A stretch of 64,000 bases of DNA from the sequence record PQ666542; one strand, written 5' to 3'. Below the pieces are notes generated by a model. That model did not search any database, was not told the DNA's origin, and worked only from the letters and a program-made list of their open reading frames with translations. Positions within the stretch are counted from its first letter, which is position 1. Each line of letters opens with the position of its first letter. Source of the DNA: Shigella phage sb4. The position numbers and the translations under genes were made by a program. Of the stretch, positions 5,839 through 8,016 are shown in pieces.

Positions 5839-8016
5839 TTAGGCCGCAAGGGCCTTCATAGTTTTAGCGACTTGGGAAACTTCATCATCACTTAAAGAGT
5901 TGCGATAACCGATGAAGTCGGAAACAATACGGAATTTCTTGGTAAACTCAGCAACCATTTTATCACTGTTTTTTGAAGCATTATTTGATAATACATCAAA
6001 AAGATTAGTTACTGTCCAGATGTCATGACCGATGGTATCTTTTCCACCATTGAAATATACGCCCCGTAATGAACTAACTATATTAGCGAGTCGTGTATAT
6101 TCTTCAGAAACTTCATCTGTACTGAAGTACTTCATCATAAAATCTAGTTCAGGATACTTGATAATTTTATCAATATATCGTTGAGCTGAACTTGAATAAC
6201 CTACGTACTTATCATAATCTACATCATCAAAAGCATCTACATATAAATCACGTAGAGTTTCAAAAATACATTGGCACTGACCGAGTTCTTTTACCTTTTT
6301 CTGCAAAAGCGGACGAATAACATAAAATTCATTAATGCCAAATAGATTAGCCATACGAATCAAAATACTCGTAGACGGATTACAGAGCGAAGTAGTACCA
6401 TCCATAGAAAAAATATCAGAACGATGCATATACGCTACATAACCAGTAATTTCATCTGCTTCTGACGTAAGTGTAAACAGTTCCTCTTTTTCCCAACGCC
6501 CGTCTTTAATTTCAAACTTAAACGCAGTAGCAGCTTTAGGACGAGGAGCTTTACTTTTAACTGCCTTCGGAATATAACTTTTAACTAAAGCTTCAATTTC
6601 TGACAAATAATGAATGTTAACTTCATCACTTTCAAACATTGCCATAATATCCGGGAGTAAATCAATCTGCGATTCTACTTCCGGATAAATAAACAGAAGA
6701 CGCTCATTATGATGAATATTCAAAGTGTTGTTAAATTCTTTATCATATAACGCATGCGCTAATCCACGGACAATATTAACACGATTTTCTATATTATCAA
6801 TAACAATATTAATTTTTGTTGTATTAATACCAAACAGACGATAACTTGATGCAACGGCTGAAGTTTCATGACTTTGCTTAATGCGTTTCAGTCGAGGGTC
6901 AAGATTTACTTCATACACAACTCCTGCATTGCATAACTTACTGTCAGGTTCAAACATGCTTTGCATCTTCTTATATGACAGATTTTTAGTCGTAAATTTG
7001 ACTGAATTACTAATCATATAATCTCGAGCAGAATATCCCATCTTCATCAATTCACGGTATGTATGACGAGGAGATGTAGATTCTTTAAATCGTTTTACAT
7101 CTTCATTGAATGCCTTCTCACTAAGCTCTTTAACACGCTCAATAATATTTTTACGAGTACGATCATCTAGTGAAAGAGCTTCACGTGATGGAGCAATATC
7201 AAGTGAACCCATTGGAAACTTAATGTAATTCACTTCATTGCGGATGCTTTACCAGTAACGGTCTCTAATAACACCATCAATAGGATAAACAATACCACCA
7301 TAGATAGCATATAATCCACCGCGATCTGGCCAGTATCTTTCCGGATTTACACCGTAATAGTCATCAAAATCCGGAAAATAATCAATTTCGCGGTCAAGAC
7401 CATTAATGCTAGCCAAATCTTTGAATGGCCGCATGATATAAGAAACTTCATAAGCAAAGTTTCTAAAGTCTTTTTCTTCAACTGGAACTACGATTTCAAT
7501 ACCAGTTTTATCGTTTGGACCCATTTCTTTTACGAATGTAGGTTTAATTTGCGGACCATCACCATCCATGTAAGCTACATAACCACGAATTTCACCTTTA
7601 TGATATGAAGTAATACTAAATGTATCAGTATTACTAAACGGAGATTTAGAACCTAAACCAAATCCGCCAATGAAATCGTTAGATTCAGCCTTAGATGAAC
7701 TAAAGTATGAATTATACAACCCAGGAGAATTATCATCACCTTGAATATCAAAATCACTCATACCCGGACCAAACTCTCGACAAACAACTCGCGGATCTAA
7801 TCGTCCTGGAACTTGAATGATAAATTTTTCAGGATTTCCATTGAGAGCATGGGCATCAATCATGTTGGTAATCAATTCACGGACTACTGCGCGAATCTTG
7901 TTTGTATACAAATCAGATGACAGAATTTTGAATACTTTAGGAGATGCTGTGATGCTAAATGCTTTTGATTTAGAACCATTACCAAGAATTGTTTCTTTTT
8001 AAGTGGTGATAATCAT
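5839..8016 (-). CDS. rIIA: rIIA protein; two in-frame TAA codons (7999-8001 and 7249-7251)
   Basis: 726 codons from ATG 8014-8016 to stop at 5839 = T4 rIIA 725 aa; N-terminus [13 protein letters not shown]. Confidence 0.9.

Follow-up and report, generated by a model that had tools for sequence, protein, structure and literature searches.

The 64,000-nt stretch of Shigella phage sb4 analyzed here (hereafter the window; record PQ666542) carries an ortholog of the T4 gene rIIA whose sixth codon is TAA, and this raises the question of whether the phage is an rII mutant, whether the stop is bypassed in translation, or whether the codon is absent from the phage altogether. Comparison with related genomes indicates that the TAA very probably stems from an error of sequencing or assembly, in a record that is noisy throughout, rather than from a mutation of the phage.

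Starting at its first base, the window aligns collinearly with pSs-1, a Shigella phage (NC_025829; 97.1%), and equally so with sb1, sb2, and sb3 (PQ666539-41), Shigella phages from lake water in Kolkata; as judged from these alignments, it comprises the first 64 kb of a Tequatrovirus genome similar to pSs-1. In a megablast search with the 2.7 kb around the site, 499 phage records gave a match, 492 of them covering at least 80% of the query, with identities not exceeding 97.4%. All of the matching records come from T4-like phages (Tequatrovirus) with Escherichia, Shigella, or Yersinia as hosts, and the matching region is annotated as rIIB, rIIA, rIIA.1, and the topoisomerase large subunit. In the window, the large subunit of topoisomerase II (8285..10102, minus strand) is encoded by one uninterrupted gene of 605 codons, as in T2 and pSs-1; the split into genes 39 and 60 that characterizes T4, with its 50-nt translational bypass and intervening genes, is absent from this interval.

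The rIIA ortholog occupies positions 5839..8016 on the minus strand and comprises 725 codons, as established by mapping of pSs-1 genes, translation, and megablast. It is the counterpart of positions 5840..8017 in pSs-1, with equal length and no indel, and is collinear with rIIA of pSs-1, T4, and T2. Its DNA is 96-97% identical to that of many records annotated as rIIA, and it lies between rIIB on one side and rIIA.1 and gene 39 on the other. The frame of 725 codons is interrupted by in-frame TAA codons at positions 6 and 256.

The first of these stops is located at 7999..8001, where the plus strand reads TTA and the minus-strand gene accordingly opens with ATG ATT ATC ACC ACT TAA, as a preliminary description of this DNA had reported. 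We aligned 86 nt across the rIIA start from the window, T4, T2, pSs-1, sb1, sb2, sb3, and ZCEC15. In all seven other sequences codon 6 is GAA, so the Glu that the preliminary description had given for T4 is correct; the T4 and window sequences are one base apart, and the TAA, private to this record, corresponds to a single C>A change at plus-strand position 8001 (G>T in the first codon base on the gene strand). The alignment is otherwise invariant except for two further singletons, and all three are private G>T changes: GAA>TAA at codon 6 in the window, GAA>TAA at codon 8 in sb1, and GGT>TGT at codon 14 in sb2. The ATG (8016..8014) and the GAGG Shine-Dalgarno sequence (8025..8022), together spanning 8014..8025 on the minus strand, are the same in all aligned records, T4 and T2 included, and therefore the annotated rIIA start is the conserved one. 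A 56-nt query across codon 6 found no exact match among 505 phage records, the best match being 55 of 56 nt. Thus, the TAA is private at a site that is otherwise invariant in close and distant relatives alike.

Translation of the minus strand from 8016 to 5830 yields the second stop (...RDRYW*SIRNE...) before the normal terminator, a stop that the preliminary description had overlooked. This TAA, at codon 256 (7249..7251, minus strand), replaces an ancestral TTA (Leu) through an A>T change at plus-strand position 7250, and 7 nt before it, in the gene sense, a private transversion replaces Asn with Tyr. The adjacent rIIA.1 ortholog (67 codons; 8027..8230, minus strand) carries a private T>A change that converts AAA at codon 52 to TAA (8075..8077, minus strand).

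To place these stops in the context of the window, we mapped the pSs-1 annotation onto it, covering 129 genes. Of 98 genes mapped to the first 50 kb, 28 are broken relative to pSs-1, as are 6 of 31 in the last 14 kb. A codon-by-codon count gave 32 premature stops in 25 genes, and 7 further genes are frameshifted. The stops comprise 28 TAA, 4 TGA, and no TAG codons, and they replace codons for Glu (12), Lys (5), Leu (5), Gly (3), Ser (3), Gln (2), Arg (1), and Tyr (1). Premature stops were found in DNA polymerase gene 43 (codon 178), in the clamp-loader genes 44 (codon 245) and 62 (codons 45 and 143), in dCTPase gene 56 (codon 152), as well as in gene 47, endonuclease VII gene 49, topoisomerase gene 52, dda, modA, denB, and imm. 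The frameshifted genes are gp3, srd, modB, an mrh-like gene, gp84, nrdD, and a nucleotidyltransferase gene. Indels of 1-2 nt account for the frameshifts in srd (16517..17264), modB (17980..18605), the mrh-like gene (19666..20152), nrdD (45016..46832), gp3 (1654..1810), and gp84 (43776..43884); hence the noise consists of indels as well as substitutions. A single ORF of 337 codons (56123..57136, minus strand) extends over two pSs-1 genes, gp108 (81 aa) and the nucleotidyltransferase gp109 (244 aa). Relative to pSs-1, an extra base is present in this part of the window; the long ORF may represent a true gene fusion, may stem from an error in the window, or may have been split in pSs-1. Terminators have been lost as well as gained: private changes at 10990..10992 (TAA>AAA) and 12907..12909 (TAA>CAA) leave two hypothetical genes without terminators, and such stop-loss changes give rise to extended ORFs, e.g., 10864..11409.

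All but three of the lesions in the window are absent from both pSs-1 and sb2. The exceptions, which are common to the window and sb2, are the indel in gp84 and two TAA codons, one at codon 152 of gene 56 (21152..21154) and the other at codon 35 of imm (29207..29209); gene 56 of sb2 has a further TAA at codon 151. The two shared stops may be real and of shared ancestry, or they may stem from a recurrent systematic error or from cross-talk between libraries, and some lesions of the window may likewise be real or systematic instead of random.

The set of affected genes is difficult to reconcile with a viable phage. Amber and other nonsense mutants of T4 in genes 43, 44, 62, 56, and 49 are lethal on non-suppressing hosts, and therefore an isolate that forms plaques cannot carry the full set of these stops. 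Nevertheless, stops are recorded in genes 43, 44, 62, 56, 47, and 49, all essential according to established T4 genetics, of a phage that propagates.

The substitutions responsible for the premature stops belong to a distinctive class. We aligned the first 25 kb of the window with pSs-1, sb1, sb2, and sb3 and defined as private those changes found in the window only. The 306 private substitutions comprise 151 transitions and 155 transversions, compared with 122 and 19, respectively, in pSs-1 and 122 and 21 in sb3, the two clean relatives. The excess is formed by A>T (40), T>A (38), C>A (37), and G>T (18) changes. Private substitutions are evenly distributed along these 25 kb, at approximately 12 per kb (range 3-16), whereas the private differences of the clean genomes are patchy. 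Some clustering is nonetheless seen, albeit mild: 7.5% of neighboring private substitutions are separated by 3 nt or less versus 3.6% expected, as exemplified by the 61-nt segment 21120-21180 with four private changes (three transversions and one transition). A local sequence context, homopolymers, or a fixed motif as the source of the errors was considered and rejected, since the flanks of private transversions show a mild AT-rich preference and no strong context.

The private transversions of the window are without sign of selection. They are spread over the three codon positions without bias (47/42/51) and include 30 synonymous, 99 missense, 10 nonsense, and 1 stop-loss changes. A model without selection, in which the window's own transversion spectrum was placed randomly on the pSs-1 coding sequence, gives expectations of 21 synonymous, 105 missense, and 14 nonsense or stop-loss changes, from which the observed 30, 99, and 11 are not significantly different (chi-square P = 0.09). 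In contrast, the private transitions behave like real divergence, with codon positions 30/15/90 and 92 synonymous versus 40 missense changes, and they reject neutrality (P = 1.5e-16). For the first 50 kb, the expectation under this model is 27.6 premature stops, and 24 were observed. With respect to rIIA, its share by coding length amounts to 1.16 of the 32 stops; the probability of at least one stop is 0.69 and that of at least two is 0.32, so the codon-6 TAA is no more than expected by chance. The gene is the third longest of those mapped (after genes 43 and 52), which explains why it collected two stops.

One feature of the stops departs from the model. TAG is absent from the 32 premature stops, although the neutral model assigns it 17.5% (about 5.6 stops; P = 0.002). 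Among new trinucleotides in any frame, TAG/CTA are mildly underrepresented (9 versus 15.6 expected, P = 0.046), and the number of new TAA/TTA agrees with expectation (43 versus 38). The lack of TAG is thus only partly explained by sequence context. Neither the TAG deficit nor the stops shared with sb2 rescues the interpretation of the locus as an rII mutant.

The sister records sb1 and sb2 share the condition of the window to different degrees. In 25 kb of sb1 (1..25007), we counted 159 private transversions, among them 65 C>A and 53 G>T, and 19 nonsense changes; its rIIA has stops at codons 8, 279, and 282, and rIIA, gene 52, dda, and modB are split in its annotation. sb2 is mildly affected, with gene 43 split, and sb3 is clean. 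Both sb1 and sb2 resemble the window in start coordinate, gene order, excess of private transversions, and fragmented genes. The spectrum of sb1, however, consists almost entirely of C>A and G>T changes, to which the window adds A>T and T>A in equal numbers, and the sites hit differ between the window and these two records, save for the two stops shared with sb2.

The four phages were described in a published study (PMC11993411), in which they are named ADG1 (PQ666539, sb1), AKR2 (PQ666540, sb2), CRD3 (PQ666541), and TMC4 (PQ666542, the record of the window); they were obtained as plaque formers from a lake in Kolkata. According to the text of that article, PCR-amplified libraries from 50 ng of input DNA were sequenced on an Illumina NovaSeq instrument and assembled with SKESA. 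Several functions are entered more than once in the part of its Table 1 that covers TMC4: topoisomerase II (002 and 003), RIIA (014 and 015), ADP-ribosylases (four entries, 032-035), DNA polymerase (059 and 060), clamp loader (062-064), and SbcD (071 and 072); RIIB (013) and the topoisomerase large subunit (017) are listed as well. The duplicate entries given there coincide with the gene breaks of the window, which suggests that the errors were already part of the sequence as deposited and do not date from a later step. The article reports 285 proteins for ADG1, 254 for AKR2, 255 for CRD3, and 291 for TMC4, and the inflated counts of TMC4 and ADG1 (291 and 285 versus 254-255) are best explained by gene fragmentation.

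These observations suggest that the codon-6 TAA very probably arose by a C>A miscall at plus-strand position 8001 in the assembled or deposited sequence. On this reading, the consensus contains approximately one wrong base per 150-200 nt, with unselected noise estimated at 0.5-0.65%; the errors are mostly transversions toward A or T (A>T, T>A, C>A, G>T), accompanied by a few indels and falling at any codon position. GAA, AAA, and TTA codons abound in this AT-rich genome, and about 9% of such errors create stops, nearly all of them TAA. As to the physical cause, we infer, as a best guess, low coverage with error-rich reads entering the consensus; low-quality reads in the consensus and damage during library preparation are other possible candidates. 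Against an error of the record, consensus errors of approximately 0.5% are unusual for Illumina data, and the text of PMC11993411 contains no coverage figures. Errors induced by modified cytosine (glucosyl-hydroxymethylcytosine) were also considered and found unsupported; they could fit the C>A and G>T changes of sb1 and fail to account for the equally frequent A>T and T>A changes of the window. Modified cytosine is insufficient because half of the window's excess consists of exchanges between A and T. In a virome methods study, Illumina recovery of T4 DNA with this modification was only modestly (2.6-fold) lower, and no effect on errors was reported (PMC13289072).

The alternative that survives best, although we regard it as very unlikely, is a genuine ochre mutation in rIIA of a natural or laboratory rII mutant, in which RIIA would be cut after five residues and its function abolished. 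A true nonsense codon here takes the place of a conserved Glu within a conserved frame, and such a mutant would be viable, since T4 genetics has established that the rII genes are dispensable on most hosts. Moreover, judged from pSs-1 and sb3, approximately 13% of the private transversions of the window (about 20 of 155) are expected to be real. Taken individually, the codon-6 TAA would be tolerable, because rIIA is dispensable on non-lysogenic hosts, and this site alone could be a true mutation. The lesion is, however, far from isolated: rIIA itself contains a second stop, and 30 more are found elsewhere, essential genes included. The substitution belongs to the class that lacks selection, private G>T changes are found at other nearby codons in the sister records, and none of the 505 other records contains the TAA. 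Private nonsense changes number 12 per 25 kb in the window versus at most 1-2 in clean relatives. One part of the preliminary description stands, in that a TAA does replace a conserved in-frame Glu, but its assignment to the classic rII genetic markers is unsupported given the 32 stops in 25 genes and the 7 frameshifted genes.

Still less likely is the possibility that the changes were really in the sequenced DNA, as a damaged, mutagenized, or defective sub-population, e.g., an oxidized template copied in PCR; the errors would then be chemical lesions that had become fixed ahead of sequencing, as opposed to mistakes of base calling or assembly. C>A and G>T changes are in excess in the window, and especially so in sb1, a pattern classically left by 8-oxoguanine damage when libraries are prepared, with which PCR amplification from 50 ng of input is compatible. 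Oxidation does not explain, however, why A>T and T>A are as frequent as C>A in the window. In addition, artefacts of damage normally have a low allele fraction and are outvoted at normal coverage. Even if damage were the source, the TAA would still be an artefact, and the verdict on it would be unchanged.

It is scarcely credible that the stops are read through, by reassignment of TAA, a suppressor tRNA, or programmed readthrough, or that translation restarts downstream, the genes thus remaining functional. The predominance of a single stop type in a phage isolated from plaques (28 TAA, 4 TGA, and 0 TAG; PMC11993411) and the statistically odd lack of TAG speak for recoding. Against it, reassignment would be expected to involve one amino acid and to be conserved in relatives, whereas the stops stand for eight different amino acids in homologs, and none of them is conserved in relatives 96-97% identical, except for the two shared with sb2. 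Furthermore, the stops are accompanied by frameshifts and by unselected missense changes that belong to the same mutational class, and normal TAA terminators are still in use at gene ends. No tRNA gene was found within the 64-kb window, the phage tRNA cluster being located outside it; according to PMC11993411, each of the four phages has 10 tRNA genes, and the five anticodons examined are ordinary sense anticodons. Recoding of stop codons was therefore rejected. A conserved downstream start, named in the preliminary description as the observation that would speak against a nonsense lesion, was sought and not found in rIIA: the only in-frame restart after codon 6 is the TTG at codon 36, whose frame ends again at the stop at codon 256. 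Equally hard to credit is the notion that the stops are truly in the packaged DNA of a propagating phage, through efficient UAA/UGA readthrough or suppression in the Shigella host or through complementation among multiply defective genomes, in which case the absence of TAG would reflect selection and not chance.

With an error in the record as the preferred explanation, the codon-6 TAA almost certainly has no biological meaning and is not a real feature of the phage; if it were real, it would be merely another rII-null allele, of little interest today. The locus calls for caution, since a lone stop in a famous marker gene mimics classical genetics, and only the dozens of equivalent lesions around it expose the record as unreliable. 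Biological conclusions should not be drawn from the pseudogenes, split genes, or amino-acid variants of this record or of sb1.

The closest known systems are rIIA of T4 (NP_049616, the RIIA membrane-integrity protector and lysis inhibitor) and its orthologs in T2 and pSs-1. These represent the same gene of 725 codons, placed as in the window between rIIB and rIIA.1, and across the first 86 nt they differ from it by one base. Unlike them, the frame of the window is interrupted by the TAA codons at positions 6 and 256. Classical rII mutants were obtained by selection on phenotype and are wild type apart from a single lesion. The window resembles the T4 rII ochre and amber mutants of Benzer and Brenner in that one base turns a sense codon into UAA, which at face value gives an rII-null allele; it differs from them in that this lesion is one of 32 stops and 7 frameshifts and belongs to a class of changes on which selection has left no mark.
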